Positions 22,233-62,067 of a stretch of 64,000 nucleotides of DNA are shown here, one piece after another. How positions within the stretch are numbered: the first letter of the stretch is position 1; the number at the start of each line of letters is the position of its first letter. A model generated the notes under the pieces. The model did no database searches, was not told where the DNA came from, and worked only from the letters and a program-made list of their open reading frames with translations. The DNA is taken from assembly GCA_043827405.1 (NCBI GenBank), contig JBDRPD010000083.1, positions 1 to 64,000 of the forward strand. The letters run 5' to 3'. Made by a program: the position numbers and the translations under genes. Source of the DNA: Elusimicrobiota bacterium. Its GTDB lineage: Bacteria; Elusimicrobiota; Elusimicrobia; UBA1565.

Positions 22233-23056
22233 ATATGAACAAGATCGACTATCGGTCCAAGGGCCTCCAAGTGCGAAAAGATATCATCGATATTCTTGCC
22301 AAGGCGGGGCGCGGTCATATCGGAGCCGCCTTTTCTTTGGTGGAGGTTCTGCTGGTTTTGTACTACGGGGTGCTGCGGGTAGATTCCCGAAAGCCGGATT
22401 GGAAGGATCGGGACAGGCTTATTTTCAGTAAAGGACACGGCTGCCTGGCGTTGTATCCGATACTCGCGGACTTGGGCTTCTTCCCTCGCGAGGAGTTGTG
22501 GAAGTTTTGCTCCCCGCATGGGATATTGGGCGGGCACCCCGAGCACTACAAAGTGCCCGGAGTTGAAGCGTCCACGGGAGCGCTCGGCCATGGGCTGTCT
22601 ATCGGCATTGGAATGGCACTAGCGTCTAAGATGAACGAACAAGACTACCGCGTCTACGTAATCGTCGGCGACGGGGAGTGTGACGAAGGCTCAATATGGG
22701 AGGGGGCGCTCGCGGCCAGCAAGCACCGGCTTGACCGCTTGACAGTGATCGTGGACTACAATAAGCAGCAGTCCTACTCAGATACCGCGGAGGTGCTGCC
22801 CCTTGAGCCGTTCGCCGACAAGTGGCGGAGCTTCGGTTTCGAGGTTCAGGAAGCAGACATGGAGCACCCCGAGCAGCTGCGTGACGCGCTGGACAAGGCG
22901 CCGCGCGGGGACGGCGCGCCGAGAGTGGTCATTTGCCATACCATAAAAGGCAAGGGCGTCTCTTTCATCGAACGGAATTTACAATGGCACCACAAGTCGC
23001 GGCCGTCGGAAAGCGAGCTTGCGGATATTCGCCGGGAGCTCGAGGCCGCGTCATGA
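22229..23056 (+). CDS. Transketolase, N-terminal (TPP-binding) subunit
   Basis: RDRLIFSKGH, STGALGHGL, GDGECDEG...YN, HTIKGKG. Confidence 0.92.
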   Translation: MNMNKIDYRSKGLQVRKDIIDILAKAGRGHIGAAFSLVEVLLVLYYGVLRVDSRKPDWKDRDRLIFSKGHGCLALYPILADLGFFPREELWKFCSPHGILGGHPEHYKVPGVEASTGALGHGLSIGIGMALASKMNEQDYRVYVIVGDGECDEGSIWEGALAASKHRLDRLTVIVDYNKQQSYSDTAEVLPLEPFADKWRSFGFEVQEADMEHPEQLRDALDKAPRGDGAPRVVICHTIKGKGVSFIERNLQWHHKSRPSESELADIRRELEAAS

Positions 23057-23991
23057 GAAAGCGCTGCCTAAATACAATCCATGAGCTCGCCCGCCGCAAT
23101 AAAGATGTTGTTTTTGTCGGCTCCGATCTCGGCGCCGGTGTGCTGGAAGATATGAAGCAGGAGCTACCGGGACAGTTTATGATGGAAGGCGTTTCGGAGC
23201 AGCATATCGTCGGCATGGCCGCGGGGCTAGCGATGAGCGGCAAAATAGTTTACATCAACACGATCGCGCCGTTTATTACGCGGCGCTGCTTTGAGCAGAA
23301 CGTGATCGACCTGGGTTTGGCGAAGGCAAACGTTCGCTTGACGGGCAGCGGCGGGGGGCTCGTGTACGCGCCCTTGGGCCCGACGCATCTGGCGACCGAC
23401 GACATCGCGATCATGCGTGCGATCCCAAACATGACCGTCATCGCTCCCGCGGATGCCGAAGAGATGGAGCGGGTCGTGCGGGCGTCAGAAACCTATGCCG
23501 GGCCGATTTATATCCGCATCGCCAAGGGCGGCGATCCGGTGGTGTCGTCTCCGGATCATCCCTTCGCTATCGGCGAGGCGGTCGTGCACCGCGATGCGGG
23601 CGAGGTTTTGTTCGTGACCACGGGCATTATGCTGGCGCGCTCTCTTGCCGCAACGGAGTCCCTGCGGAAGTCCGGTATCGAAGCGGGAGTCGTGCATTTG
23701 CATACCATTAAGCCGTTTGACGGTGAGACCGTGCTGCGTGCGCTGGGCGGAGCCCGCGTCGTTATTACACTGGAAGAGCATACGATCGTCGGCGGCCTGG
23801 GCAGCGCGGTCGCCGAGCTTATCGCAGAAAATATTTTTATTCGGACGCCGCTGCTGCAGCGCCTGGGCATTCCCGATGTATTCCCCGATCAGTACGGCTC
23901 GCAGGACTCGCTGCTGAAGCGCTTCGGGCTCGATGTGGAGAGCATTGTTCGGCGGACGGAAGAGAGCCTCGCCCGGACGGCAAAGCGATGA
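23053..23991 (+). CDS. Transketolase, C-terminal subunit
   Basis: EGVSEQHIVGMAAGLA, LGPTHLATDD, EEHTIVGGLGS; ATG 23053 overlaps the upstream stop. Confidence 0.92.
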   Translation: MRKRCLNTIHELARRNKDVVFVGSDLGAGVLEDMKQELPGQFMMEGVSEQHIVGMAAGLAMSGKIVYINTIAPFITRRCFEQNVIDLGLAKANVRLTGSGGGLVYAPLGPTHLATDDIAIMRAIPNMTVIAPADAEEMERVVRASETYAGPIYIRIAKGGDPVVSSPDHPFAIGEAVVHRDAGEVLFVTTGIMLARSLAATESLRKSGIEAGVVHLHTIKPFDGETVLRALGGARVVITLEEHTIVGGLGSAVAELIAENIFIRTPLLQRLGIPDVFPDQYGSQDSLLKRFGLDVESIVRRTEESLARTAKR

Positions 23992-24479
23992 ACGCGGACG
24001 AGCCCGATATCCCTCCCGGGCTGGACCTTATTGTTGACCGGAGCGGCCGGACCGAGGCCTATTATTCGCGGTCGTCGCTGCCGGTAATCGATGCCGCCGC
24101 CGTCGAGTGGCTCAAGAATAAGGCTGCCGCGGCCGGTACCGCCCGCATCTGCCTGCATCTGGGGAAGGAAGATCCTATTCACAGTATGATTATCGCCCAC
24201 GCACCGTCCGGGGCGTTCGTCGTCCATAAGCATCTGACCCGGGATGAGGTCTATCATATGATCGAGGGCCGGCTGCGGGTGACGATCTATGGAGAGGACG
24301 GCAAGCCGTGTGAAACGAAGACCTTGGGGGCGCTCGGCTCCGGGCTTCCCTTCTTGTGCCGCGTACGTGCCGGCGCCTGGCACTCCAACGTGCCGGAAGA
24401 CGGCACGGCGGTTTTTCACGAATCGCGGCCGGGACCGTTTAAGCCAGCCGACACCTTGACGGCGGACCGGACGTCGTGA
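23988..24479 (+). CDS. WbuC-family cupin-fold metalloprotein
   Basis: RICLH, HKH..DE.YHMIEG, WHS, ESRPGPF. Confidence 0.82.
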   Translation: MNADEPDIPPGLDLIVDRSGRTEAYYSRSSLPVIDAAAVEWLKNKAAAAGTARICLHLGKEDPIHSMIIAHAPSGAFVVHKHLTRDEVYHMIEGRLRVTIYGEDGKPCETKTLGALGSGLPFLCRVRAGAWHSNVPEDGTAVFHESRPGPFKPADTLTADRTS

Positions 24480-26961: not shown

Positions 26962-28050
26962 ATGACGAAGATCTCGTGGTGGCGGACATCTTTTGGGGAG
27001 GCTGAAGTCGAGCGCATGCAAATGGCGGTACGCAATGAGCATATCAGCGCGGGCCCGGTCACTGAGGCGCTCGAAGCCGAGATCGCGCGCGCGCTGGACG
27101 TCCCGTACGCGGTTGTGACAACAAGCGGCAGCGCCGCGCTGTTCCTGGCGCTGCAGGCGGTCGGAGTCCGGCGCGGCGACGAAGTCATCGTGCCGGACCG
27201 CACCTGGATCGCCACGGCCCACGCGGTGTTGCTGGCTGGCGCCAAGGTCGTGCTGGCGGACGTTCGTTCAGATATCCCGACGCTGGATGTCGAGCGGCTG
27301 AAAGAGAAGATAACTCCGCGGACCAAGGCGATACTGCCGGTCCACTTGAACGGGCGCGCGGTCGAGATGGATAAGGTCCACGCACTCGCGGCCGAGCATG
27401 GGCTGAGGGTTGTGGAGGACGCCTGCCAGGCTTTATTTTCGCGCGACAGCGGCTGCTGTTTGGGCACGCAGTCGGATGCGGGTTGCTTTTCCATGAGCGT
27501 CACCAAGCTGATCTCAACGGGTCAGGGCGGTTTCGCGGTGACGAAGGATAAGGCGGTGTACGAGCAGATGACGGCTCTGCGTAATCATGGGGTGGCTGAC
27601 TACTTCGCCGACCGTTGGAACCAGTTCGGTTTCAATTTAAAGTTTACGGATCTGCTCGCGTCTTTCGGTTTGGTGCAACTGGCCAAGGCGGCGGAACGCG
27701 TTGCGGTGCTGCAGGCGATCTACGAGAAATACCGAAACGGCCTCGTGGGTCTGCGGTCGGTCAAGCTGCTGCCGTCCCGGGTGGCCGCGGGCGAGCTCCC
27801 GCTGTATGCGGAAGTCCTGTGCACGGAACGGGAGCGGCTCGTCGAGTTCCTGGCTGCCCGGGACATCCAGACGCGTCCCGTACCGCCGAACCTGGATATC
27901 TCCGACTACATCGAGAACGACGGCAACTATCCGAACTCCCGGCGCTTTGCGGAGCAGGGGATGTACCTGCCCTGCGGCCCCGGGCAGCCGCTGGAGAACA
28001 TAGACCGCGTCATCGAGGCGGTCGCGCAGTTCGCGCCCAGAGAGGTTTAG
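26962..28050 (+). CDS. DegT/DnrJ/EryC1/StrS sugar aminotransferase
   Basis: SGSAAL, VEDACQ, SMSVTKLISTGQGG, LRNHG. Confidence 0.9.
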   Translation: MTKISWWRTSFGEAEVERMQMAVRNEHISAGPVTEALEAEIARALDVPYAVVTTSGSAALFLALQAVGVRRGDEVIVPDRTWIATAHAVLLAGAKVVLADVRSDIPTLDVERLKEKITPRTKAILPVHLNGRAVEMDKVHALAAEHGLRVVEDACQALFSRDSGCCLGTQSDAGCFSMSVTKLISTGQGGFAVTKDKAVYEQMTALRNHGVADYFADRWNQFGFNLKFTDLLASFGLVQLAKAAERVAVLQAIYEKYRNGLVGLRSVKLLPSRVAAGELPLYAEVLCTERERLVEFLAARDIQTRPVPPNLDISDYIENDGNYPNSRRFAEQGMYLPCGPGQPLENIDRVIEAVAQFAPREV

Positions 28051-29145
28051 ATGAGTTTCAAGACCATCACCGCGCCCCATATCAACGCCAACGACGTCGA
28101 AATGGTACTTGTCGAATGGCATGTCCGCCCATGGCAGAAGATCGTAAAAGGCGAGCCGATATGCGACGTCGAGAGCACTAAGGCGCTGCTTACCGTTGAG
28201 GCCGATCGGGCGGGCTACGTCTATCCCTTGGTCGAAGAGAAAGCGACGGTGCGGGTCGGCGAGCCGCTGGCGCATGTTTTCGTCAAGAGCGATCCCGAGC
28301 AGCTGGCTGCCGTCGAGAAGAAGGCCGCCCGCGGCGGCACAATTGTTACAAAGAAAGCGAGGATTCTTATGCAGGAATTCGGGCTCACGGCTTCCGATTT
28401 TCCGGAGTTCACAAATATTAGTTCGGAGACGGTGGTGGCGAAGATTCGGGAGCGCAAGCTCGCTCCGGCGACCGAGGGCGGTGCCGAGGCGCGTGAGGTG
28501 CGCTTGGACGATACGTCTGTGGTGCTGTACGGAGATGACCCGAACTTCGCGCTGCTGGCGTTGGATGCGTTTGCCGCCGGCGGGCGGTACTCGCCGGCGG
28601 CCTATGTCGGCGCGGCGCGAGGCGGAGAGTTCTATGGGATCCCCGCGCTACCTTCCGGCGCGCTGAGCGGGCTTATGGCGCGCGGCGCGCGGCGCGTGTT
28701 TATTTGCGGTTCGGATTGCGCGGCGCAGGTGCGGGAGTGTGAGGCTTTGGGATGGGAGATCGTTTCGGCGGTCCATTCTTCCGCAGTCGTCGCTGTTACC
28801 GCGCGTCTGGGCCGGGGCGTGTTCGTTGGCGCCCAGGCTGCGATCGGGCCGGACGCGGAAATCGGAGACTTCTGCCGGATACTGTGCGGGGCTTCGGTCG
28901 CCCACCACGGCCGGTTGGGCAAGTTCGTCAGCGTTTCCGACGGCGCCCGGCTGGGAGGGCACGTCTCGGTGGGGGACGGAAGCCTCATCGGCATCGGAGT
29001 GAATGTGAACAAGCGCGTGGCGATGGGGAAAGGGGTGGTCGTCGTCTCGGGCGTTACCGTGACCGACCATGTGCCGGATAAGCAGGTCGTGCGCGCCGCC
29101 GGACAAGGGAAGACGGATTATCAGCAGAGAGCGAAAGAGGAGTGA
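28051..29145 (+). CDS. Fusion of a lipoyl domain, an E3/E1-binding-like segment and a NeuD/PglD-type hexapeptide-repeat acyltransferase
   Basis: VEWHV...GEPICDVESTKALLTVEA..AGYV (lipoyl Lys44); IVTKKARILMQEFGL; SAVHSSAVV, hexapeptide repeats and ASVAHH. Confidence 0.82.
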   Translation: MSFKTITAPHINANDVEMVLVEWHVRPWQKIVKGEPICDVESTKALLTVEADRAGYVYPLVEEKATVRVGEPLAHVFVKSDPEQLAAVEKKAARGGTIVTKKARILMQEFGLTASDFPEFTNISSETVVAKIRERKLAPATEGGAEAREVRLDDTSVVLYGDDPNFALLALDAFAAGGRYSPAAYVGAARGGEFYGIPALPSGALSGLMARGARRVFICGSDCAAQVRECEALGWEIVSAVHSSAVVAVTARLGRGVFVGAQAAIGPDAEIGDFCRILCGASVAHHGRLGKFVSVSDGARLGGHVSVGDGSLIGIGVNVNKRVAMGKGVVVVSGVTVTDHVPDKQVVRAAGQGKTDYQQRAKEE

Positions 29146-29147
29146 CT

Positions 29148-30182
29148 ATGTATCTGCGACATAACGATATGCCGGACATCGTCCGGCTTGAATTGACGAA
29201 CACCTGCAATATGTCGTGCCCTCACTGCCGGCATCATAGCCCGGAAAAGAGGAGGCCGGAGAACTACGCCGAGTACTACAAAAACCAAACGAACATGACG
29301 GAGGAACAGGTGGGGGCGATCTTCGATGAGATCGGGCCGCACAAGCCTTCGATGACGCTCAATGTGGCCAATGAGCCGCTTATCGCGCCGGCCTTCCCGT
29401 TCGCGGTGCGCAAGGTTCGGGAGCACGGGATCGCGGGAACCTTCAACACCAACGGGATCGCGCTGACGGAGAAGATCGCCCGTCTTCTCGTGGATGTCGA
29501 ATTCGACTCGATCAATATTAGCGTCGACGCCCTGACTCCGGAGACTCTAAAAAAGGCGCGCGGCATCACGGCGCTGGATAAGCTGGTGCGGAACGTCGAA
29601 ATGCTGGTAGAAATCCGCGGCGGCAAGCGCTTTCCCCGCATCGGAGTGACCTTCGTGGAGATGGACTACAACGTCCATGAAATACCGGAGTTTCTGGAGT
29701 TCTGGAAGAAGCGCGTCGATGTGATCCGAATCACTGGCTACATCTCCGACAATAAGCCGGATGTCAAGAAGTTCCCGACAGGACGCAAGGAGGGGTTGCC
29801 GGATCGAGTGCCGTGCAAGCAGCTGTTTCGCGATATCGTCATCCGCGCCAACGGCGACGTGACTCCGTGCGTGATTACTTCAGAAAACCCTGATCCGGTG
29901 CTCAGTGTCGGCAATATATTCAAGGATGGCGGCATCCGCGCGGTGTGGAACGGCCGCGCCATGCAGAAGCTGCGTGACATGCACAACAGCGGGAAATGGG
30001 AAGATATTTCATACTGTGCGCCGTGCGACTACTGGGTGGAGACCTTTGAGATGAAGGAGGAGCGGCGGGACGGCTTCTTTATCCGAACGCCCTCGCCCTA
30101 CACCGCGTTCTATAACGTCGAGGAGAGAATGGCGAACTGGAACAAGAAGCTTCTCGACCGGCAAGGGATGGGCGAACTTTGA
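29148..30182 (+). CDS. Radical SAM protein with SPASM/twitch domain
   Basis: CNMSCPHC, TNG, PC...GDVTPC...GNI...CAPC; SD GAGGAG before ATG 29148. Confidence 0.88.
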   Translation: MYLRHNDMPDIVRLELTNTCNMSCPHCRHHSPEKRRPENYAEYYKNQTNMTEEQVGAIFDEIGPHKPSMTLNVANEPLIAPAFPFAVRKVREHGIAGTFNTNGIALTEKIARLLVDVEFDSINISVDALTPETLKKARGITALDKLVRNVEMLVEIRGGKRFPRIGVTFVEMDYNVHEIPEFLEFWKKRVDVIRITGYISDNKPDVKKFPTGRKEGLPDRVPCKQLFRDIVIRANGDVTPCVITSENPDPVLSVGNIFKDGGIRAVWNGRAMQKLRDMHNSGKWEDISYCAPCDYWVETFEMKEERRDGFFIRTPSPYTAFYNVEERMANWNKKLLDRQGMGEL

Positions 30183-31084
30183 GCTTCCAGCTGAGCCGGG
30201 TCCTGCTGCTGGGGCATAGCGGCTTTATCGGTTCCGCGCTGGCGCGGCGGCTTCATGAAAGCCGGCCGGGGATTGAGGTCGTCGGTCTGTCCTACCCGCC
30301 CTTCGACCTGACAGCACAGGAGCGGATAGCGGAGCTGCGGGAGGAACTGCGGCCGGGAACTGCCGTGGTCATGTTGTCGGCGGTCAAGCGGCAGAGCGGC
30401 GACACGCTGGAGAACTACCTGCAGAACCAGATGATGGTGGTTAATTTGTGCCGGGCGCTGGAGGGACGCAGCTCCGTGCGCGTCGTATTCTTCAGCTCGA
30501 CCGCGGTTTACGGCGAGGATGTGCACAATACCGAAATCACCGAGGCGACGCCGGTCCGTCCGCGCTCCTATTATGGGATGGCGAAGTACTCCGGGGAGCG
30601 GATTCTCGCCAAGGCGTTCCAATCCGACAACGGGCGCGGGCTCGTCCTGCTGCGGCCCGCCACCGTCTATGGCGCCGGTGAACCCGGCACGGGTTATACG
30701 CCCACGGGCTTTCTGCGCAAGATGCGCGGTGGAGAGCGTCTGACACTGTGGGGCGACGGCAGCGAGTTGCGCGAGTTTATATATATCGATGATCTGACCG
30801 CGCTGACCGAGCGCCTGATCTTCAGCGACTTCTCCGGGGTGGTCAATATCGTTAGCGGCCGGAGCCGCACCTTCCAGGAGATCGCCGCGGCCGCTGTGCA
30901 GCTCGTCGGGGGAGGAGAAGCTCCCGACCGCAAGCCGAGGAGCAAGGATAAAGTTGACAACTGCTTCGTTCCCACTTATGTGCCGCGGCTTTTCCCTGAA
31001 TTCACGTTCACTAGTATCGAGGACGGGATGCGGCGGATCAACGAGCTGGAAGCGGCTGCAGCTTCCGCCGGTGGCGTGAAATGA
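30179..31084 (+). CDS. NAD-dependent epimerase/dehydratase/ketoreductase
   Basis: GHSGFIG, SSTAVYG, YGMAK, GDGSELREFIYIDD. Confidence 0.88.
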   Translation: MSFQLSRVLLLGHSGFIGSALARRLHESRPGIEVVGLSYPPFDLTAQERIAELREELRPGTAVVMLSAVKRQSGDTLENYLQNQMMVVNLCRALEGRSSVRVVFFSSTAVYGEDVHNTEITEATPVRPRSYYGMAKYSGERILAKAFQSDNGRGLVLLRPATVYGAGEPGTGYTPTGFLRKMRGGERLTLWGDGSELREFIYIDDLTALTERLIFSDFSGVVNIVSGRSRTFQEIAAAAVQLVGGGEAPDRKPRSKDKVDNCFVPTYVPRLFPEFTFTSIEDGMRRINELEAAAASAGGVK

Positions 31085-32286
31085 GCTGTCGGCAATGCGG
31101 TAAGACTGAGTTGGAGGAGCTCATTCAATGCGGCCCCCAGCCTATAGGCAATAGGTTCCTGGAATCGCGCGAACTAGAGGAATATCTTCATCCGCTTACG
31201 CTCGGCCAGTGCTCCGGTTGTGGAATTGTTCAGCTGACTGAGTCGCCCCCCGCCGAGGAGCTGCGCCCCCGGCTGGATTGGATTACCTACAGCGAGCCCG
31301 AGGCGCATCTGGACGCGCTGGCTGACAGGATCGCGGCGTTGGAGGGGCTGCCCGACGGCGCCGTTATCTGCGGTGTCAGCTTCAAGGATGATTCCATGCT
31401 GCGGCGCATGCGCGAGAGGGGATGCGGCGCTACCTGGCGCGTCGACATCGAGCGGGATCTGGGAGTCGCGGGCGCGGGTGCCGGGGTAGAGACCGTCCAG
31501 GCTCGCTTGACGCGGGGCAGGGCTGCAGCGCTGGCGCGGGAGCACGGCCCGGCGGATGTGGTCATCGCGCGGCATATTCTTGAGCACGCCTTCGATCCGC
31601 GAGAGTTCCTGGCGGCGGTTCGGTGTCTCGGCAAGCCTGGCGCGTATGTGGTATTCGAGGTTCCGGATTGCTCAGCGTCGATCGAGCGGCTGGATTACTG
31701 CGTTATCTGGGAGGAGCACGTGGTGTATTTCTCGCCGGAAACCTTTCGCGACTGCCTGCGTCGCGCCGGCTTAGTACCGGTGTATTTCGACATGGTGCCG
31801 TACCCGATGGAGAATTCGCTTATCGGCATCGGCCGCGCCGGCGCCGGCGGCAGCGGCTCCGGGGAGGATATGTCCGCGAAGGTTTTGGAAGCCGAGCTGC
31901 GTCGGGGCCGGGCTTTCGCCGACGGCTTCCCCCGTCGTCGGGACGCGCTGCGCGGTCGGCTCGCCGCGCACGCGGAGAAAAACGAGAAGATCGCGCTTTT
32001 CGGCGCCGGACATCTGGCCTGCACCTTCGTCAGCCTGCTGGGTCTGGGTAAATACATCGAGTTTGTGGCCGACGATCATCCGTACAAGAAGGGGATGTTC
32101 ATGCCGGGCTCGAAGCTGCCGATTATGGGCTCCATGGCGCTGCTGGACCGCGGCGTCCGTCTTTGCCTGCTTAGTCTTAACCCGAATAATGAGGAGGCGG
32201 TGATAAGCAACAACCGCGAATTTGTTGACCGGGGGGGAGAGTTCTTTTCGATCTTTCCGGCCAGCAAGCGCGCGCTGAAACCCTGA
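31081..32286 (+). CDS. C-methyltransferase-family protein with a degenerate SAM motif
   Basis: CRQC...CSGC, RHILEH, EEHVVYF, FGAGH; motif I reads GVSFKDDS. Confidence 0.8.
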   Translation: MSCRQCGKTELEELIQCGPQPIGNRFLESRELEEYLHPLTLGQCSGCGIVQLTESPPAEELRPRLDWITYSEPEAHLDALADRIAALEGLPDGAVICGVSFKDDSMLRRMRERGCGATWRVDIERDLGVAGAGAGVETVQARLTRGRAAALAREHGPADVVIARHILEHAFDPREFLAAVRCLGKPGAYVVFEVPDCSASIERLDYCVIWEEHVVYFSPETFRDCLRRAGLVPVYFDMVPYPMENSLIGIGRAGAGGSGSGEDMSAKVLEAELRRGRAFADGFPRRRDALRGRLAAHAEKNEKIALFGAGHLACTFVSLLGLGKYIEFVADDHPYKKGMFMPGSKLPIMGSMALLDRGVRLCLLSLNPNNEEAVISNNREFVDRGGEFFSIFPASKRALKP

Positions 32287-32291
32287 CCCGT

Positions 32292-34070
32292 ATGCGAGCC
32301 TTTAGATTTATCCGCGAGATCTATAATAAATTTCCCGTCCTGCTTGTCGCCTGTATATCCCTCTGGGTTATGGTCGGCGTTTTCGAGGCGGCCGCCATCT
32401 TTTCGGTCGCTCCGGTAGTCGATTTGCTTATTCATCCGGAGTTGGAAGGCGCGAGTCCCCTAACTGTGAGTCTGGTCGGTATTCTTGAGCGAGTCGGGCT
32501 GTCCGCTACGCTGGCGACGGTGCTGGGTGTTTTCGTCGTCTTTAGCTTGTTTAAGAGCCTTTTTCAGCTCTTCGCCCGGCATCTTATCCTGCGCGCGAAA
32601 TACGCGGTCCAGCAGGATTTGATAGTCGGGACGTTTCACGATTTTTTCCATGCCCGCTGGCACTTCTTCGCCAGTGATCGGCAGGGCAAGCTGCTCAACA
32701 CCTTCATCCGTGAGATGGGCGTCGTCGGTAACGCTTTCGGTGCGATGGCATTGTTCTTCGCGGCGCTGCTGCAGCTCGTTATGTATATGGCCGTTCCGCT
32801 GTACTTATCGTGGAGGATCACCGCGGTCAGCACCGCCGCGACGCTGATCTTCGGGGCGCCTTTTTTGCTTTTGGGCGGCATCAGCTACCGCCTGGGTAAG
32901 CGCAATACATCCACCGCCAATGATCTGTCTTCGGTCATTAGCGAGAGTTTAAGCGCGGTGAAGATCATCCTCGGCTTCGGCAATCCCGACAAGAACGTCG
33001 AAATGGTCGACCGGACCTACGACGCGCACCGCCGAGTGACTCTCATTTCCCAGACCCTGGACGTGGGGATTCCGATCCTGTACCTTCCCATCGGGCTGTC
33101 CATTATGGCGGTCGCCCTCATCGCCGGCAGGCGCTGGGGGGTGCCGCTGGCCGAATCGGCCGCCGTTTTGTATTCCTTGCTGCGGATGGTCCCTGTTATT
33201 GGCCAGGTTCTGCAGCAGAAGACCTCCCTTGATAATTTTTTTCCCAGCTACGAGCAGGTCTTAAGCTTGCGCCGGCGAGCCACAGAACTGCGCCAGGAAT
33301 CAGGCGCGCGGCTCTTCATCGGGATGAACAGCGAGATTCGACTGCATGGCGTGAGCTTCGCCCACCCCGGGAATGAGCCCATCCTGCGCGGCATCGATCT
33401 CGTGGTTCCTAAAGAAAAAATGATCGCCATCGTCGGTGAATCCGGCGCCGGCAAATCATCCCTGATCGATCTGATCATGGGCTTCCACCCCCCGACCGCG
33501 GGAAAAATAACGGTAGACGGGACGCCGCTGCCCGCGTTCGATATCTACTCGTACCGGCGGCGGATCGGTTATGTGCCGCAGGAAAGCGTCCTGTTTAATA
33601 TGAGCATCCGCGACAATCTGCAGTGGGCCAAGGAAGACGCGTCGCAGGAGGAGATCGAGAAGGCCTGCCAGCAGGCGAACGCCGCCGGCTTCATTAAGGA
33701 TCTGCCGGAAGGCTATGCTACCATCGTCGGCGACCGCGGTGTCCGGCTCTCGGGCGGGCAGGTCCAGCGCGTGGCGTTGGCCCGGGCGATACTGCGCAAG
33801 CCGGATCTGCTGATCCTCGATGAGGCGACAAGCGCTCTGGATACGAAGTCCGAGCGCATGATTCAGCAGTCGATCGAGGAGTTGGCCAAGAAAACCACTC
33901 TTATTGTGGTGGCGCACCGGCTGTCGACCATTGTCCAGGCGGATTATATTTACGTCCTGGGCAAGAGCGGCTTGGTTGAGGAAGGGAGCTACGCCGAGCT
34001 GATGGCCAAGAAGGGGCTTTTCGCGCGCATGGCGGAATACCAGGAGCTCAGCGATCCGCAGGCCGCTTAG
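32292..34070 (+). CDS. ABC transporter, fused permease/ATPase (MsbA/PglK-like flippase)
   Basis: N-terminal TM domain, Walker A GESGAGKS, LSGGQ, ILDEATSALD, AHRLST. Confidence 0.92.
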   Translation: MRAFRFIREIYNKFPVLLVACISLWVMVGVFEAAAIFSVAPVVDLLIHPELEGASPLTVSLVGILERVGLSATLATVLGVFVVFSLFKSLFQLFARHLILRAKYAVQQDLIVGTFHDFFHARWHFFASDRQGKLLNTFIREMGVVGNAFGAMALFFAALLQLVMYMAVPLYLSWRITAVSTAATLIFGAPFLLLGGISYRLGKRNTSTANDLSSVISESLSAVKIILGFGNPDKNVEMVDRTYDAHRRVTLISQTLDVGIPILYLPIGLSIMAVALIAGRRWGVPLAESAAVLYSLLRMVPVIGQVLQQKTSLDNFFPSYEQVLSLRRRATELRQESGARLFIGMNSEIRLHGVSFAHPGNEPILRGIDLVVPKEKMIAIVGESGAGKSSLIDLIMGFHPPTAGKITVDGTPLPAFDIYSYRRRIGYVPQESVLFNMSIRDNLQWAKEDASQEEIEKACQQANAAGFIKDLPEGYATIVGDRGVRLSGGQVQRVALARAILRKPDLLILDEATSALDTKSERMIQQSIEELAKKTTLIVVAHRLSTIVQADYIYVLGKSGLVEEGSYAELMAKKGLFARMAEYQELSDPQAA

Positions 34071-35739
34071 CGGCGGCGGGTTTTAAGCGCACAACTCGTC
34101 CGTAGTTCGGTAGCATCGTCACTTCGGCTCCGAGTTCGATTAGGTGGTCTATGTATGGCCGGATGTGGCCGTCGTAACGTAGGCGCAGATTCGTCGCGCT
34201 GCCGATGATTTCCACCATGGCCTGTGATTCGAATACGCAGTCAATGCGCTCGGGGCGCAGCCCGGCATAGCCGGGATCGCCCAAATGTCCGAACGGCGGG
34301 ATTTCCCAGGGATCGTACAGGCGCTCGATCGGCACGTCGAGGAAGGCGCCGAAGAAGAGGATTTCCTGCGATAGGATTCCCCCGCATCCGTGCGCCAGGC
34401 GCCGCAGTTCCTGGTACGGGATGTTCCTGGAGCTCGGCTTCTTCCGAATGACGGTGAGGCTGCCGGGGTCGCGCACGGCCTCCTGCGCGATGGCGGGCCA
34501 GCGCAGTCCGCCGTCAGACAGCAGCAGCAGGCTGAGCGGCATTGCGGCCGCCGCGCCCAAGCGGCTTCCTTTCGCGTGCAGCTTGTCCCGCAGTCGCGCA
34601 CCCAGCGAGGCCGCGATGGCGATCAGCACCGGGATCCAGGGGATGAAGTAGCGCGTTTTGGCCAGCACGAGCGCGGTCGTCGAGATCACCGCCACGCAGC
34701 CGGTGTAGAATAGGAATTCGTCCGGTGACCAGGTGCGCCAGGCAAAAAGGGTGAAGGTGAAAAGGACGAGAAAGGCGGCGGCGTGGGCATGCGGAACAAA
34801 GCCGAGCAGCTTGGGGAGCATCGTGATGAGTACGGAGTGGTAGGGCAGCTCCAATAGATTGCGCCATATCTGGCGGATAACGAATTTAGGATTGGCCTGT
34901 ACGGCGGCCGGCAGAGTCTCAGCTCCGGCAAACAGCTCCTGGTTGGTGAAGTAGAAGTCATGTCCTTCGAACGTGCCGTAGCGCGATTCGATATATTTCC
35001 AGTTTTGTCCTTGAATAAATGCCGCGTTCGTCAGGCCGTGCGCGGCTCCCGGCATCCATCTGGCTGTCGCGAACTGCGCGTTGTTCCAGCGATGAGTGGA
35101 GGGGGAAGCGCTAAGCGCGACGGCCAGGAGCAGCGCCAGTCCAAGCGGCAAGTCTTCGCGCCGGGGGAGTAGGTTTTTCAGCCGGTGCTGACGCCAAAGG
35201 CGGTAGAGGTCGAGCATTATGAACAGTAGTATGAGCAGAATGAATGTGGTGCGCAGGAGGGCGGCGCCAACAAGCAAAGCGTAGGACCAGGACCCCGGTC
35301 CGCGTGTGTCCTTGCCGCGCAGCACCAGCGCGAGGCAGCAGAGCGCAAGGCACAGCGGCTGCGTCGGCGGAGGCGACGCAGCGATAAACGGGAGCCAGAG
35401 TACCGCGGCGAATACCGCCATTTTCCCGCCGACGAACCGGCGGGCAAAAAGCGCTATTGCGCCGCCGGCCAGCGTCAGGGTGACGATGCGCTCGAGCAGG
35501 TATCCGAAGGGAAAGCCGAGTCCCCAAAACGGCAGTAGATAGAGAACGTACAGCGGGCTGCGTCCCGGGTTAACCATGCCGCCCGTTTCCCACAGCACGC
35601 GCGCGAAAAACCAGTAGCCTCGCGCCTCATTCCCCGGGTCCCGAATGAGCGGTATGGCCAGCATCGCGAGCAGGGCGATGGCACCCAAAGCCGGCAGGCC
35701 GTGCCGCCGGTTCAATCGTCGCGGCAAAAGCGCCTCCAT
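34048..35739 (-). CDS. Polytopic membrane protein, probable GT-C-fold glycosyltransferase
   Basis: Many hydrophobic helices, RSPLY early loop, KTRYFIPWIP late motif; start taken as ATG 35739. Confidence 0.6.
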   Translation of the reverse strand: MEALLPRRLNRRHGLPALGAIALLAMLAIPLIRDPGNEARGYWFFARVLWETGGMVNPGRSPLYVLYLLPFWGLGFPFGYLLERIVTLTLAGGAIALFARRFVGGKMAVFAAVLWLPFIAASPPPTQPLCLALCCLALVLRGKDTRGPGSWSYALLVGAALLRTTFILLILLFIMLDLYRLWRQHRLKNLLPRREDLPLGLALLLAVALSASPSTHRWNNAQFATARWMPGAAHGLTNAAFIQGQNWKYIESRYGTFEGHDFYFTNQELFAGAETLPAAVQANPKFVIRQIWRNLLELPYHSVLITMLPKLLGFVPHAHAAAFLVLFTFTLFAWRTWSPDEFLFYTGCVAVISTTALVLAKTRYFIPWIPVLIAIAASLGARLRDKLHAKGSRLGAAAAMPLSLLLLSDGGLRWPAIAQEAVRDPGSLTVIRKKPSSRNIPYQELRRLAHGCGGILSQEILFFGAFLDVPIERLYDPWEIPPFGHLGDPGYAGLRPERIDCVFESQAMVEIIGSATNLRLRYDGHIRPYIDHLIELGAEVTMLPNYGRVVRLKPAAAKRPADR

Positions 35740-36578
35740 TTTATCTTCGATTCCGGCATCTCCGGGGGCCGGTGTGCGCTCTTTTCTCCGATCAAGCGGT
35801 CGATCTGATCTGGAAATATCGGCGCAGCGCCGCAAGCGGCCGCGAGGCGCACGAATGCGGCCAATAACGGCAGCCAAATGGGGATCGGGACGGCCCCCCA
35901 GCGCTGGGAAATCCGTCGAGCCAAGGCGGCGCCGTCGAACTCCTCGGGGCCGCAGATTTCATGGATATGCTCGCCATCCTCAGGGTGAGTCATTATACGG
36001 GTGCAGATCTCCGCGAAATCATCCGCATGGACCGGAGCAAAACGGATATTCCGGTGCCCGAGCAGCATCGGCACGATTCGCCACTTGCGCGCCAATGCCA
36101 CCAAGCGGTCCACACCCTCCGTGCCGTCCGCCGCGTAAACTTCAGCCGGTCGCAGGATGGTCAGGCTCCTCCAGGAAAGTCGTCTGAGCGAGTCCTCGGC
36201 TTGCCGCTTCGAATCGCCGTACGCTCCTGAGCCGCGGCCGATGCAGCGCGTACTGAGGTAAAGCATACGCTCACAGCCGGCGCCTTGGACGGCGGCGGCC
36301 AGCCGTTCGGTTCCCCGCAGGTTCACCTCGGTGTAGGCGGTAAAGTCCGCGGCATGTGTTATCCCCGCGAAGTGAACGCAGCGTTGCGGACGCAGACCGC
36401 GAGGAAGGAGGGGGCGGCGGCGTAGATCGAGAGGAAAGGACTTTACTTGCGGATGGCTCAGCGGCGGAGGATGGCGATGCACGCCGCACCAAATGCGAAC
36501 ATCCGGCACGCGCTCAAGGTAGCGGCTCAGCACCTGCGCCCCGAGCTTTGAAGAGGCTCCTGTCCAAACTATATCCAT
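35712..36578 (-). CDS. Atypical SDR / NAD(P)-dependent epimerase
   Basis: TGASSKLG, VNLRGT, YGDSK, LRPAEVY, PVHADD. Confidence 0.82.
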   Translation of the reverse strand: MDIVWTGASSKLGAQVLSRYLERVPDVRIWCGVHRHPPPLSHPQVKSFPLDLRRRPLLPRGLRPQRCVHFAGITHAADFTAYTEVNLRGTERLAAAVQGAGCERMLYLSTRCIGRGSGAYGDSKRQAEDSLRRLSWRSLTILRPAEVYAADGTEGVDRLVALARKWRIVPMLLGHRNIRFAPVHADDFAEICTRIMTHPEDGEHIHEICGPEEFDGAALARRISQRWGAVPIPIWLPLLAAFVRLAAACGAAPIFPDQIDRLIGEKSAHRPPEMPESKIKWRRFCRDD

Positions 36579-36633
36579 AATCCGAACATGCTCCCTGACG
36601 GGCGCTGCGGCAGGATATAGTACGATATCTGCT

Positions 36634-37404
36634 GTGAATAAAGATGTCGATGGGCCGGTGCCGTTTCTCTCGTTAGTCGTCCTTTGTTACCGCAGCGAGG
36701 AGTCCGTTGTCCCATTTGTTGAGCGCATCGTAAAGATGCTCTCGTTCTGCAATTTTACCTACGAATTGATCTTGGTCGGGAATTACCTTGAGGGCAGCGA
36801 CGATCGCACCCCCGAGGTCGTTCGTGATCTCGCCAACCATTTCGCGCAGGTGCGCGCGATCACGCTACCGAAATCGGGCATGATGGGCTGGGACATGCGT
36901 TCCGGTATGGATGCCGCGCGCGGGAAGTATGTGTGTATTATCGACGGGGACGGGCAGTTCCCCCTTGAATCCGTCCTCACCTGCCTGATTAAGATCGACA
37001 CAGAAAACTACGACCTAGTAAAAACATACCGCGTGCGCCGCGAAGACGGGCTGTATCGCAGGATCATCTCAACCGTATACAACGCGATCTTTCGGCTGCT
37101 GTTTAAGACTAACTACTACGACGTTAACTCGAAGCCTAAAATTATTCGCCGGGAGCAATACGTGGATCTCGCGCTGCAGTCGGATGATTGGTTTACCGAC
37201 GCTGAAATTATGATCCGTGCGACGGAGATCGGCTTGCGCGTCGCTGAAATTCCGATCCATTTCTACCGTATTGAAGAGCGCTCCTCGTTCGTCAGGCCAA
37301 GCGCCATATTTGAGTTCCTGAAGAATTTGTGGGATTATCGTTTTCGTCGGCCGCCGGCGCGCTCAGGCGCGCGCGGCGACAAAATATTGGGCGCCAAGCG
37401 GTAG
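36634..37404 (+). CDS. GT2 glycosyltransferase (polyprenol-phosphate glycosyltransferase-like)
   Basis: LSLVVLCY, SDDRT, IDGDGQF DxD motif, RREDGLYR, DAEIM. Confidence 0.88.
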   Translation: MNKDVDGPVPFLSLVVLCYRSEESVVPFVERIVKMLSFCNFTYELILVGNYLEGSDDRTPEVVRDLANHFAQVRAITLPKSGMMGWDMRSGMDAARGKYVCIIDGDGQFPLESVLTCLIKIDTENYDLVKTYRVRREDGLYRRIISTVYNAIFRLLFKTNYYDVNSKPKIIRREQYVDLALQSDDWFTDAEIMIRATEIGLRVAEIPIHFYRIEERSSFVRPSAIFEFLKNLWDYRFRRPPARSGARGDKILGAKR

Positions 37405-38049
37405 CCTGCGCAGGCCGTGTTCGATAATTTCAAAGAGCCTGCCGCGCCAGGGGAAGAACAGGAAGTACGCGCGGTCGATCAGCGACAGGCCCGCCGCACG
37501 GAACAGGTCCCGCACCTCCGTCATCCTGAGCAGGATCGCATCCTCATCGAATGGGCAGGCTTGCACGACCTTGGCGGTTATGGGGTTGAGCGGGTTGTGC
37601 TCAAAAATCAAAATCAGCCCGCCAGGACGAACCGCCCGGCGCATTTCCCGTATAGCGGCCAGCCGCGCCTTCGGCGCGATGTGGTGCAGCACGTTGATCG
37701 CGAATATTAGATCGAATGTCGCGTCGGGAAACGGGATGGAACTCCCGTCGTAGCACCGGTAATCCACGGACGGGTTCGTTGCGGCCGCCACCTCGATGAC
37801 GCCGGGGGCGACGTCTACTCCATGCAGCATTTTTATGCTTGCCGCGACGTACGTGTCGGTAGCGCCGATTCCACAACCGAGGTCGAGCGCGCGGAGGTCC
37901 TTGACTGAGCCGAAGAATTTACGCGCTTCGTTGATGAGAATCCGCGCCTTCATTTCGGTAAAAAAGGAGGAGTCTTGACCGCTGAAGGCGATTTGCTCGT
38001 CGAGCGTCCGGCGATAATTGTCTTTGAAGTGGTCGAAATCGGTGGACAT
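37363..38049 (-). CDS. Class I SAM-dependent methyltransferase
   Basis: LDLGCGIG, NVLHH, FEHNPLNP. Confidence 0.9.
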   Translation of the reverse strand: MSTDFDHFKDNYRRTLDEQIAFSGQDSSFFTEMKARILINEARKFFGSVKDLRALDLGCGIGATDTYVAASIKMLHGVDVAPGVIEVAAATNPSVDYRCYDGSSIPFPDATFDLIFAINVLHHIAPKARLAAIREMRRAVRPGGLILIFEHNPLNPITAKVVQACPFDEDAILLRMTEVRDLFRAAGLSLIDRAYFLFFPWRGRLFEIIEHGLRRLPLGAQYFVAARA

Positions 38050-38053
38050 CGGG

Positions 38054-39739
38054 CTATCGGGACCGCCGCGGCGCGGGAGCGCCGATGAGTGGTATGGGCG
38101 CGGTCCTTCGGTGCAGGGTGGCTGAGATCGTATCGGTCAGCTGGAAAGTGGGTCCAGGGATGAACGGCAGGCGGCGGTCTCGCAGCAGTTCTCGAATCTG
38201 CGTCTCCAGGCGGCGAACGTCTTCCTTCAATATGCCGTCCGGCAGGCCGTCCACCAGCAGTAGATGGTCGACGTCCTTGTCCCGCAGGCGGGCGAGGGTC
38301 CGCTCGACACGCGTTTCGTTGTATCCATAGCTGACGAACCTGAGCGGATAGTTCCGGCGCGCGCTGAAATAGTTGAGATTGTTGGAGTTTAGGTATCCGA
38401 TTTCTGTGCCGAGGGCCACTTTTGTTTCTTGTTTTCCCGTCTCGCGCCAGATCCAATCAACAAGTTCCTGCTGGCGCCAAAGTCCTTCCCGCTGAGGTGG
38501 TCCGCTGTAGGTGCTGCCCGGCTTCAGGAAGGACGCCGGCCCGATCTGGACGGCAGGAAAAAGCTTCACGCCAAAAGTCTGCAGTGCGTAGCCAGCCGCG
38601 GGGATCGCAAAAAACAGGCTTAGGAGCGCGGCGCGCAGGCGCGAGTTTCGCGTTAGCAGATCGAGGCCGCCGGCTAGCAGCAGGGAGAAGGCCGGCAGCG
38701 CCGGAGTCATGAAGCGGATGGCCTTGTTGACGCCGACGGTGCCGAAAAACAACGGAACGAGCAGCCAGGACAGGAGCAGGCTCAGGGAGGAGTTGGAAAT
38801 CAATAGGGGGAGCGGCCGCAGGCCGCGGCGATGCCGGTAGAGGAGCGCGGCGGCGACTGCGGCCGACGCAAGGAAATAGTAATAGGACAGGCCGTTTTCG
38901 ATCAGCTTGTGCCAGTAGCCGAAAAGGACGGCGGGGTTGAATACCCGCGTGTCACCGTAGTGCGCCGCGACCTTGCCGAAGCTGGCCATATAGATGTAGC
39001 CGGCCGTGTAGATCAAATTGTGGGCGTACCAGGTCAGGGCGATCAACCCGCTTATTGCGACGATGGTCTTTAGCGGCGGCTCAACCGCGCGGAGGAAGCC
39101 GCCGCGCGACTCACGCCAGCGGCGCCACAGAACGTCGGCAAGGGCGCCGATGACGAACATGGGGAAAAGCACTTTGAGCAGCAGCCCCGCGCCGGCCAGC
39201 GCGCCGACGGCTCGGACATGGGTCCGTCGCCGCAGCCCGTCGGAGGCGGCGAGATGGTAGGTGACTGCGGACACCACCGCCGTTAGTGCGATTTCAACGA
39301 AGAAGCGGTGGGTGAGCCCGGCGATGAGCGGCAGCGTCAGGGTTATTAGCACCGCCAGCAGTCCGGCGGTCTGGGAAAATAGGCGCCGGCCGAGGAGAAA
39401 CACATAGCCGCCGAGCATGATGGTCGCGGCGAGGTTGACTAGAAGCGCCGTATCGTGCGATGGCCCGAAGAGAAAGAAGGGCGGCAGCGCCAGAACCGAG
39501 ATCAGGGGAGCCTTGAAGAGGAAGGCGGAGGCGTAAGCGCGGTAGAACGCGGCTGGCCCGTTATCGCGCAGGGCGTAATAGAGCTTGCAGGCGATTTCAA
39601 GATACCAGGCGTCGTCGAAGGTCGGGGGGTGCGTTTCGGCGTGAAAATACCACAGATTGATAGCGCAGCAGATTATGACGGCCGCGGCGGCCCCGGCGGC
39701 GGGGGAAATGCGTCCAATGCGATGGCGGACTGAAGTCAT
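38054..39739 (-). CDS. ArnT/GT39-like (PMT_2) membrane glycosyltransferase
   Basis: PPTFDDAWY first loop, KAPL, GAGLLLK, NKAIRFMTPALP, many TM helices. Confidence 0.8.
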   Translation of the reverse strand: MTSVRHRIGRISPAAGAAAAVIICCAINLWYFHAETHPPTFDDAWYLEIACKLYYALRDNGPAAFYRAYASAFLFKAPLISVLALPPFFLFGPSHDTALLVNLAATIMLGGYVFLLGRRLFSQTAGLLAVLITLTLPLIAGLTHRFFVEIALTAVVSAVTYHLAASDGLRRRTHVRAVGALAGAGLLLKVLFPMFVIGALADVLWRRWRESRGGFLRAVEPPLKTIVAISGLIALTWYAHNLIYTAGYIYMASFGKVAAHYGDTRVFNPAVLFGYWHKLIENGLSYYYFLASAAVAAALLYRHRRGLRPLPLLISNSSLSLLLSWLLVPLFFGTVGVNKAIRFMTPALPAFSLLLAGGLDLLTRNSRLRAALLSLFFAIPAAGYALQTFGVKLFPAVQIGPASFLKPGSTYSGPPQREGLWRQQELVDWIWRETGKQETKVALGTEIGYLNSNNLNYFSARRNYPLRFVSYGYNETRVERTLARLRDKDVDHLLLVDGLPDGILKEDVRRLETQIRELLRDRRLPFIPGPTFQLTDTISATLHRRTAPIPLIGAPAPRRSR

Positions 39740-39754
39740 GTAGAATATGAAGGC

Positions 39755-40705
39755 GTGAGCATGATAGCAAAAGAGGGTTTACCGGTCGGTGAGCTGTGGC
39801 GACGAATGCTGTTGATCCGGCGCTTTGAAGAGAACCTGCTGCGGATGTTTGGGCAGGGCGAGATCTTCGGCACCACACACTGCTGTATCGGCCAAGAAGC
39901 CAACGCCGTTGGCATAGCCTCCTGCCTGCGGCCGGGTGATTTCGTGGTCAGCAACCACCGTTGCCATGGACACTATCTGGCGCGCACCGGTGATGTGGAG
40001 GGGCTGCTCGCGGAGATGATGGGACGGTCGGCGGGGGTCGTCGGCGGCAGAGGGGGGTCTCAGCATCTGCACGCAGAGAACTTTATTTCGAATGGAATCC
40101 TCGGCGGCGGCACGCCTATCGCGGTCGGAACCGCGCTCGCGCATAAACTGGAAAAATCCGATGCGGCAACAGTTTGCTTTATTGGTGATGGGACTTTCGG
40201 CGAAGGGGTTCTCTACGAAGCGCTTAACATGGCATCCTTGTGGGGGGTACCGGTCCTTTTTGTGGTTGAGAATAACCATTATTCACAATCGACGCCGATC
40301 ATGAAAAACCTGGCGGGGAGTCTGCGCGGGCGTTTCGACGCTTTCGGGATTGCGGCGCAGGAGATCGAGAGCTTCGATGTGGCGGAGATTCGCAGCGCCG
40401 CTGATAAGCTTCTGGAAGATATGCGGCGGCGTGTCCGACCGGCGGCTTTACTCATAAGTACCTACCGTTTTTGTCACCATTCCAAGAACGATGACGCGCG
40501 CGATCCGGCGGAGGTCGCGCGGTGGAAAAAACGTGATCCCGTCGACGCCTTGCGGGAAACTGTCGACGCCGGCGAGCTCGAGCGGGCCGAACAGGAGATC
40601 GAGCAGCGCCTGAAACAGGCGGAGCGCGCGGCCAGCGAGAGCCCGGAGCCGGCGCTCACCGCGCGGCATCTTGATCCCTATTTTACCAGCGATGAGATAC
40701 GTTAA
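39755..40705 (+). CDS. TPP-dependent 2-oxoacid dehydrogenase E1 alpha-like subunit
   Basis: LIRRFEE, THCCIGQEA, NHRCHGH, GDG...ENN TPP motif, TYRFCHHS, RDPV. Confidence 0.9.
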   Translation: MSMIAKEGLPVGELWRRMLLIRRFEENLLRMFGQGEIFGTTHCCIGQEANAVGIASCLRPGDFVVSNHRCHGHYLARTGDVEGLLAEMMGRSAGVVGGRGGSQHLHAENFISNGILGGGTPIAVGTALAHKLEKSDAATVCFIGDGTFGEGVLYEALNMASLWGVPVLFVVENNHYSQSTPIMKNLAGSLRGRFDAFGIAAQEIESFDVAEIRSAADKLLEDMRRRVRPAALLISTYRFCHHSKNDDARDPAEVARWKKRDPVDALRETVDAGELERAEQEIEQRLKQAERAASESPEPALTARHLDPYFTSDEIR

Positions 40706-41705
40706 GCGGCTCAACGAGGCCTTGGCCGGCCTGCTCGCCGATGACCCCAAGATCGTGCTGCTGGGCGAAGATATCGCCGATCCTTACGGCGGCGCCTTCA
40801 AGGTTACCCGCGGCCTGTCTACGCGCTTCCCCGAGCGGGTATTCTCAACCCCGGTAAGCGAGGCCGGCTTTACCGGCGTCGCGGTCGGCCTGGCGCTTAA
40901 GGGCTTCAAGCCCGTCGTCGAGATTATGTTCGGCGACTTCATCACTCACTGCGCCGATCAGATAGTCAACCACGCGGCCAAGCTCGGCTGGTACCGCGAT
41001 CCCGAGCGCGGGGTGCCGCTGGTTTTTCGCACGCCGATGGGCGGCGGCCGCGGCTACGGCGCGACGCATTCGCAGTCCCTTGAGAAAATGTTTCTTGGCG
41101 TGCCGTTTGTGCATGTCGTCGCCGGCAATCTGCTGACCGATCCCGGCGATCTTCTCACGCAGGCGCTCCGGCTGGACCGGACCGTTCTCTTCATCGAACA
41201 TAAGCTGCATTACGGCAGGGAGTTGCTGGACGAAACCGCCGATGAGTTGGGCGCGTTTCGCATCACGATGACTACTGGAGACTTTCCGACAGCGACGATT
41301 GCGATCGCCGACGGCGCCGCGCCGCAGGCGACCTTGGTCGCCTATGGCGCGATGGCCGACCTTTGCCTTGAGGCTTCGCGCCGTCTGTTTGTTGAAGATG
41401 AGGTCGAAGCGGAAGTCGTGGTCCCGTCGCGGATTAAGCCTTTCCCGCTCGATCCGATCATGGCGTCCGTGCGGCGGACCGGCCGGCTCGTCGTCGTCGA
41501 GGAGGGGACGGAGGGCTTCGGCTGGGGCGCGCAGGTCGTCTGCACTTTGCTGGAGCGCGGCGCCGCGTTCGCCGCGCCGCCCAAGGCCATCGCCGCGGCG
41601 GCCTGCCCGCTGGCGGGCTCTCCGTATCTCGAGAAGATGCTCCTGCCGCGGACGGATGATATCGTCGCCGCGGTGCGGTCGATTATGGCAGGGAGGAAAT
41701 TATGA
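40692..41705 (+). CDS. 2-oxoacid dehydrogenase E1 beta-like subunit
   Basis: LGEDI..YGGAFKVTRGL, TPVSEAG, EIMFGDF, ATHSQS, VVEEG. Confidence 0.9.
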   Translation: MRYVKRLNEALAGLLADDPKIVLLGEDIADPYGGAFKVTRGLSTRFPERVFSTPVSEAGFTGVAVGLALKGFKPVVEIMFGDFITHCADQIVNHAAKLGWYRDPERGVPLVFRTPMGGGRGYGATHSQSLEKMFLGVPFVHVVAGNLLTDPGDLLTQALRLDRTVLFIEHKLHYGRELLDETADELGAFRITMTTGDFPTATIAIADGAAPQATLVAYGAMADLCLEASRRLFVEDEVEAEVVVPSRIKPFPLDPIMASVRRTGRLVVVEEGTEGFGWGAQVVCTLLERGAAFAAPPKAIAAAACPLAGSPYLEKMLLPRTDDIVAAVRSIMAGRKL

Positions 41706-62018: not shown

Positions 62019-62067
62019 GTTCGCGATTCCTGTTAAAAGCTTTAGTGGTTTTTAAAAATTTATCAGT

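Follow-up and report, generated by a model that had tools for sequence, protein, structure and literature searches.

The window analysed here, a 64-kb stretch that forms the start of contig C83 of the Elusimicrobiota genome G000, encodes a protein in which an N-terminal lipoyl domain and a segment resembling a peripheral subunit-binding domain (PSBD) are fused to a sugar acyltransferase of the PerB/PglD type. The best explanation for this fusion, on sequence grounds, is that it is the equivalent of the E2 component in an acyl relay of the QncN/L type, with the CAT-fold core of E2 replaced by a sugar N-acyltransferase. A thiamine diphosphate (ThDP)-dependent E1 enzyme would load an acyl group onto the lipoyl arm, and the arm would deliver it to an amino sugar without coenzyme A (CoA). 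It is probable that such a relay operates with an acyl group of some kind, and on balance the group is predicted to be glycolyl, taken from a ketose phosphate. The initial annotation of this DNA had put forward a relay of this sort, and all the genomic tests run support it: co-occurrence of the fusion with E1, invariance of the lipoyl lysine, Lys44, and erosion of the CoA contacts relative to 31 stand-alone controls.

Anatomy of the fusion protein

The fusion and the gene before it are laid out as follows.

26962–28050, + strand: DegT/DnrJ/EryC1/StrS sugar aminotransferase (PF01041, E 1e-83)
28051–29145, + strand: fusion protein (lipoyl domain, PSBD-like segment, PerB/PglD-type acyltransferase), 364 aa
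28063–28275, + strand: lipoyl domain, aa 5–75 (PF00364 Biotin_lipoyl, E 2e-8)
28180–28182, + strand: codon of Lys44, within an ESTKA motif
28345–28449, + strand: PSBD-like two-helix segment, about aa 99–133 (helices 101–109 and 125–137 in the AlphaFold model)
28510–29115, + strand: type I sugar N-acyltransferase part (alpha/beta domain and left-handed beta helix)
28903–28905, + strand: codon of His285, which aligns with PerB His141, the column mutated in the PerB H141N and H141A entries

The N-terminal domain had been read as a lipoyl rather than a biotin domain, and this holds. Besides the Biotin_lipoyl match and the ESTKA motif, the top matches of residues 1–80 in the PDB are the E2 lipoyl domains 1ghj and 1pmr (E 2e-4), with biotin carriers ranking lower. 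An AMKM-type motif around the lysine is the mark of a biotin carboxyl carrier domain, and the genome's own biotin carboxyl carrier protein shows it, whereas E-[TS]-[TS]-K predominates around Lys44 in the fusions and a Met precedes the Lys in only 1 of 155. A biotin carrier identity was rejected on the lysine motif and the PDB ranking.

On the likeness of the following segment to a PSBD the observations point both ways. Its position and its two helices agree, related E2 proteins carry the same segment between the lipoyl domain and the CAT core, and a profile of the segment finds a real PSBD, 2eq7_C, first in the PDB, though at an E-value no better than 0.083; but the Pfam E3_binding model matched none of 22 family members at E<=0.1. 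On these matches a PSBD identity is no more than suggestive.

No CAT-like core (PF00198) is found in the fusion protein. The position that it would occupy is taken, as had been proposed, by a NeuD/PglD-type left-handed beta-helix acyltransferase. Pfam Hexapep matches at E 3e-10, the C-terminal part matches PerB (4ea7) at E 6e-15, and NCBIfam TIGR03570 (NeuD/PglB/VioB) matches at E 2e-30 with 105.7 bits, under its cut-off of 160.8. The AlphaFold model (mean pLDDT 92) resembles PerB, PglB, VioB and PglD, with a Foldseek TMt of 0.88 and rmsd of 1.6 against PerB, and a VIA Z-score of 26.6 against PglB 4m98 (rmsd 2.0, 200 aligned). A single-sequence fold of aa 1–140 had a pLDDT of 39 and was not used. 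The reading frame starts one base past the stop of the DegT gene with no gap, so that the fusion does directly follow an aminotransferase, as first described.

Conservation of the fusion and loss of CoA contacts

A word search gave 23 matches, of which 22, the query among them, are full-length fusions, and the best 150 matches listed from a profile search of 1.84 billion representatives were mostly full-length. From 169 proteins collected, the 155 of 330–400 aa were kept and 14 of other lengths dropped. Lys44 and His285 are invariant in all 155 at a mean column identity of about 26%, and Gly303, the oxyanion glycine 18 residues past His285, is invariant in 22/22 family members. The closest relative of the window protein is 59% identical, and cultured carriers include Magnetospirillum moscoviense BB-1 and Kiloniella laminariae DSM 19542. 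The viral contigs, phages and plasmids searched contained no fusion, and a metagenome scan with the single fusion protein gave 20 weak beta-helix matches and no fusion. As a separate observation, the proteins P0045, P0068, P0113 and P0304 include some in which NeuD-like matches recur over two to four stretches, and one, of 1152 aa, that joins AMP-binding, carrier and hexapeptide domains.

In VioB, the Gly182/Gly184 turn touches the pantothenate of CoA and the Gly199–Pro201 turn moves on CoA binding in some members; the roles of the catalytic H135 and of the oxyanion glycine are taken from the same source (PMC9271549). When VioB 91–197 is aligned to fusion residues 241–347, these turns map to Val332, Gly334 and Ala349–Gly351. 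Thus the window protein has a valine at the first glycine of the pantothenate turn, retains the second, and is without the C-terminal GxP turn. The controls were all 31 stand-alone NeuD-like matches from the sampled genomes (its own phylum and the class of genome G401). Glycine at position 332 is present in 26/31 controls against 14/155 fusions and 0/90 in the window protein's subgroup; the GxP turn in 28/31 against 30/155 and 3/90; and the asparagine of the VioB N128 column in 29/31 against 58/155. Relative to the stand-alone enzymes, the CoA-contact residues of the fusions are mostly lost. Since VioB uses acetyl-CoA with a Ser before its catalytic histidine (PMC9271549), Ala284, which precedes His285, was not kept as an indicator of CoA independence.

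The E1 pair and its clade

The second element of the proposed relay is an E1 alpha/beta pair, the existence of which is confirmed by its domain matches.

39755–40705, + strand: E1 alpha of the RenH/QncN-type clade (PF00676; ThDP motif GDG...ENN)
40671–41705, + strand: E1 beta of the same clade (PF02779 and PF02780; the ATG at 40692 is the likelier start)

The pair had been placed in the same locus as the fusion. It shares the window, but lies 10.6 kb downstream past oppositely oriented genes and is therefore not part of the fusion's operon. The starts of E1 alpha and of a divergent PMT_2-type membrane gene (39739–39761) are 16–22 nt apart, which leaves no free promoter space between them.

The label ‘PDH-like’, first given to this E1, is imprecise. 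Trees of the alpha (22 rows) and beta (23 rows) subunits place the window E1, the E1s of fusion loci, RenH and the actinobacterial cassettes together against the pyruvate dehydrogenase (PDH), branched-chain 2-oxoacid dehydrogenase (BCKDH) and AcoA enzymes with 100/100 support, and a tree of joined subunits (28 rows) concurs at an SH-aLRT of 100. The clade-wide motifs GT[TVI]H, SNHRxHGH, GSQH, QSTP, HSK[GN]DD, PYGGAFK and GxRGYG[PA]THSQ appear in the window alpha subunit as GTTH, SNHRxHGH, GSQH, QSTP and HSKxDD and in the beta subunit as PYGGAFK and GxRGYGxTHSQ; the comparison with PDH, BCKDH and AcoA showed a difference in each active-site motif. The best match of the alpha subunit in 72,556 plasmid records is RenH, from the renieramycin cluster; actinobacterial records come next, one of them annotated as non-ribosomal peptide synthetase (NRPS), acyl carrier protein (ACP), E1 alpha, E1 beta and E2. 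To judge by motifs and trees, then, the window E1 is of the type found with RenH and in the NRPS glycolyl cassettes (QncN/L), outside the PDH, BCKDH and acetoin types. The donor, which the initial annotation had left open between a 2-oxoacid and a ketose, is hence narrowed by the trees towards the ketose-phosphate/glycolyl clade.

QncN/L, NapB/D, SclQ and RenH/I are described as converting a ketose phosphate to a glycolyl group that passes via a lipoyl domain and an acyltransferase onto an ACP (PMC6335953, PMC7570522, PMC13249901), RenH and RenI being called ketose-to-glycolyl enzymes by homology to Qcn7/Qcn9 (PMC13249901). A likeness is also seen on the acceptor side: the lipoyl loop PxxNxND is common to the fusion and the RenI-type E2s and absent from canonical E2s, and the fusion and RenI-type lipoyl domains split from five canonical domains at an SH-aLRT of 91 (not starred). 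A Streptomyces fungicidicus plasmid (L069:4001–7543) carries an acsA-E1alpha-E1beta-E2-ACP cassette the E1 of which falls outside the RenH clade, so that E1/E2/ACP cassettes are not limited to this clade.

Linkage of the fusion to E1 across genomes

Co-occurrence of the fusion and E1 across genomes, a test named beforehand, was found by adjacency and by genome sampling. A scan of genome contigs returned seven loci, all of them fusions, from Elusimicrobia, Magnetospirillum (2), Kiloniella, Brevundimonas, a betaproteobacterium and Prochlorococcus. In all seven an E1 overlaps the fusion or lies <=10 nt away. Five of these E1s are single fused alpha-beta proteins of about 650–670 aa; in the other two loci the contig runs out within E1 beta or shortly before it. 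The loci are not all independent, since two are from Magnetospirillum and one is from G282, of the same order as G000. By comparison, a clade E1 occurs within the fetched flanks of 0/31 controls, one of which is flanked by a plain PDH E1 alpha and one by a non-clade E1 beta. A DegT gene is present in 5/7 fusion-locus stretches and beside 24/31 controls; being common beside the controls as well, it shows only that the acceptor is likely to be an amino sugar.

The fusion is rare, at 2/401 genomes in its own phylum and 1/401 in the class of G401 (the centre genome being counted in both). A profile of the E1 clade, thresholded at E<=1e-95, detects 9/401 and 2/401 genomes respectively, that is 11/802, and all three fusions in this sample accompany such an E1. 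In the other eight genomes the gene directly after E1 encodes an E2 that shares the lipoyl loop and PSBD-like segment of the fusion but ends in a CAT core, and a phosphopantetheinyl transferase follows E1-E2 in four of the eight. The fusion thus looks like a catalytic-domain swap, with the beta helix in place of the CAT core, and the E1 clade like a general donor with swappable catalytic ends. None of the seven fusion loci has an E2 core or an ACP-like gene, and in G282, G401, G403 and G404 no protein but the fusion has the PSBD-like module of the clade, all E2 cores found there scoring as ordinary.

These observations bear on whether the lipoyl-like part could be a non-functional appendage on an ordinary acetyl-CoA-dependent PerB/PglD enzyme, with the E1 an unrelated passenger. 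The fold is indeed that of acetyl-CoA enzymes and a minority of fusions retain GxP. Nevertheless, a lysine kept in every relative at such low column identity, an E1 abutting the fusion in 7/7 loci against a base rate of 11/802 genomes, and the eroded CoA contacts make this explanation very improbable.

Two other loci deserve mention in their own right. In L021, the gene immediately upstream of the fusion encodes an ordinary stand-alone NeuD (9683–10417) that retains Asp-His and GxP; this suggests two different acyl groups in one locus. In L085 (8639–14888, genome G574), a clade E1 and E2 are set amid small ACP-like open reading frames (ORFs), an AAC(3)-family acyltransferase, an AMP-binding enzyme and WbqC; this cluster may be a further use of the E1 clade in the acylation of glycans.

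A putative lipoyl relay and its cargo

E1 enzymes read the first loop of the lipoyl domain, and E3 reoxidises the lipoyl arm. In the proposed relay, the E1 would cleave a ketose phosphate such as xylulose-5-phosphate to give dihydroxyethyl-ThDP, as predicted from its clade, and would then reductively acylate lipoyl-Lys44 to glycolyl-dihydrolipoamide, in keeping with E1/E2 chemistry. The PSBD-like segment may tether E1 or E3. In the beta-helix trimer, the lipoyl arm would occupy the acyl-donor channel instead of the pantetheine of CoA, and His285 would assist acylation of the amino group that DegT installs, so that an N-glycolyl nucleotide sugar results for a surface glycan. A housekeeping E3 would reoxidise the arm. 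The 64 kb contain no E2 core and no E3, consistent with the initial observation that a normal E2 or E3 is lacking; other contigs of G000 supply E2 cores, E3, LipA and a lipoate-ligase-family gene, and the presence of E3, LipA and the ligase counts in favour of the relay. The housekeeping E2 of this genome (C39:152156–153087, in L031) is apparently split, its lipoyl domain lying in an ORF of 79 aa and its catalytic part in a second ORF in a different frame; this may be a natural split, a frameshift or an assembly error.

The same CoA-free relay might carry a group other than glycolyl: an acetyl group derived from pyruvate, or some further acyl or hydroxyacyl group that a 2-oxoacid or an unusual ketose would provide. 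The evidence from linkage and conservation fits such a cargo equally well, the window E1 forms its own branch inside the clade, and the locus makes unusual sugars and has, in its split transketolase pair, a possible source of an uncommon ketose. However, the E1 motifs are of the RenH/NRPS-cassette type, and a dedicated E1 for acetyl seems redundant because L021 has an ordinary GxP-bearing NeuD beside its fusion. A non-glycolyl cargo is therefore judged unlikely, though not markedly so.

One E1 and two lipoyl proteins in the host genome

G000 has one E1 of the clade and two lipoyl proteins of the clade, the fusion and an E2 on contig C50.

C50:210554–211891 (L032:4558–5928), - strand: clade-type E2 (lipoyl domain, PSBD-like segment, CAT core)
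L032:4350–4568: 73-aa ACP-like ORF behind the C50 E2 (ACP-like by context; no Pfam match at E<=1e-9)

The 73-aa ORF resembles a small ORF that follows the E2 of G180, a genome of the same family. The C50 E2 is 51% identical to the E2 of G180, which has its own fused E1; no E1 adjoins the C50 E2, and a polysaccharide deacetylase is nearby. With a single clade E1 present, that E1 may serve both lipoyl proteins, and one E1 feeding the fusion and the C50 E2 is the simplest reading.

Alternatively, the E1 of G000 might mainly serve the C50 E2 and its ACP-like partner, the fusion being fed by that ACP or by a CoA ester, or standing idle without an E1 of its own. The imbalance of one E1 to two acceptors, the kinship of the C50 E2 with an E2 that has its own E1, and the position of the window E1 away from the fusion and outside the fusion-locus E1 subclade all speak for this. 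Yet four other fusion genomes are without any clade E2, 0/7 fusion loci have an ACP-like gene, the fusion is intact, with Lys44 and His285 kept and 59% identity to its nearest relative, and a single E1 could charge both lipoyl domains, their loop motif being the same. This arrangement is accordingly thought quite improbable.

Several points nonetheless weigh against the relay as proposed for the window and for the family. The C50 E2, with its ACP-like neighbour and no E1 of its own, weakens the case for the window copy relative to loci with overlapping genes, as does the window E1, which is split, lies 10.6 kb away and branches apart from both the fused-E1 subclade of the fusion loci and the E2 subclade. 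RenH, the sole named anchor used for the clade, QncN/L not being among the tree rows, is itself assigned by homology. The clade is also large (at least 4476 of 8000 scored candidates at E<=1e-60, clade membership being checked in part) and could hold other substrate specificities. The family was ranked by a profile that rewards conserved residues, so that the invariance of Lys44 and His285 is not fully independent evidence. A weak search for longer polypeptides joining E1 to the fusion found none. Within the acyltransferase part, the other fusion subgroup keeps GxP in 27/65, the asparagine called strictly conserved in type I enzymes (VioB N128) is Leu278 in the fusion, and the N-terminal GAGGH-like motif has diverged to GDDPNF.

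Neighbouring genes

The fusion lies in a large glycan locus (5.6–45 kb of the window) with four DegT genes, epimerases, C-methyltransferases, glycosyltransferases and an ABC transporter. The DegT enzyme directly upstream, 46% identical to the DegT of L021, is likely to make the nucleotide-linked amino sugar that would serve as acceptor. The gene that follows overlaps the stop of the fusion with its start.

29142–30182, + strand: radical SAM/SPASM protein

This protein is 67% identical to one encoded 5 kb from the L021 fusion (L021:16428–17543). It is common to both Elusimicrobia-type fusion loci, and the same sugar may be its target.

A split transketolase N/C pair and a WbuC-type cupin lie at 22229–24479 of the locus. 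The pair is the second thiamine enzyme of the window and perhaps serves a branched or long-chain sugar; as a partner of the fusion it (22229–23991) was rejected, no strong match being present in any of the seven fusion loci. Just before it, a 576-aa ORF (20502–22232) has no match in Pfam or NCBIfam; by eye, we take its start to be HAD-like and its end phosphotransferase-like. A second locus on the - strand (58814–63989) encodes a NeuB synthase, a short-chain dehydrogenase/reductase, an AMP-binding enzyme, a hexapeptide transferase without a GxP tail and an ACP-like ORF near 61790–62050, apparently a carrier-protein acylation route within the same window as the fusion.

Relation to known systems

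The proposed relay would work like that of quinocarcin (QncN/QncL/QncM) and its relatives NapB/D/C, SclQ1-4, DinS/T/U and RenH/RenI, with which it has in common the E1 alpha/beta clade (tested with RenH), the lipoyl loop motif and the PSBD-like segment. It would differ in its catalytic end: where those relays have an ACP-loading CAT-type domain, the fusion has a left-handed beta-helix sugar acyltransferase, and its loci, without ACP or NRPS, are set in surface-glycan synthesis. The type I N-acetyltransferases PerB, PglD, PglB-AT, VioB and Pcryo_0637 share the two-lobed fold, the catalytic histidine, the oxyanion glycine (Gly303) and a DegT neighbour; in the literature consulted, the characterised PerB/PglD-family enzymes use acetyl-CoA. 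The fusion is set apart from these by its CoA contacts, having lost the CoA-contact glycine and the GxP turn, replaced the conserved asparagine and fallen under the TIGR03570 cut-off, and by its added N-terminal lipoyl and PSBD-like part and dedicated E1. The alpha2beta2 E1 systems of PDH, BCKDH and acetoin dehydrogenase share the gene order E1alpha-E1beta-lipoyl protein, seen in relatives of the fusion, and the layout of lipoyl domain, PSBD or PSBD-like segment and catalytic domain, whereas the fusion locus has no CAT core or E3, its E1 is outside their clades, and the predicted acceptor is a sugar amine rather than CoA.

Full-text literature searches, most subscription journals being outside their coverage, found no description of a lipoyl-arm sugar acyltransferase module. 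N-glycolyl nonulosonic acids were called undescribed in bacteria in 2017, when a candidate N-glycolyl legionaminic acid, its origin unknown, was reported for Tannerella forsythia UB4 (PMC5378307); from the parts of the sources consulted (PMC5378307, PMC6120980, PMC9000132), this candidate could not be linked to a fusion cassette.

Taken at its widest, the finding would be of a widespread and hitherto undescribed class of left-handed beta-helix transferases that take their acyl group from a lipoyl arm rather than from CoA or ACP, providing an O2-independent route from ketose phosphate to N-glycolyl amino sugars, among which other hosts might make N-glycolyl nonulosonates, and, in G000, an E1 that is a hub loading two lipoyl acceptors; the case for the whole of this is evenly balanced. 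If the relay is real, sugar acylation would be wired in a new way, the acyl group being donated directly from a lipoamide thioester, and the relay would offer an enzymatic route to glycolylated sugars. Strains that bear the cassette should then carry N-glycolyl amino sugars, and an E1 clade with interchangeable ends, CAT core or beta helix, would tie antibiotic biosynthesis to glycan biosynthesis.

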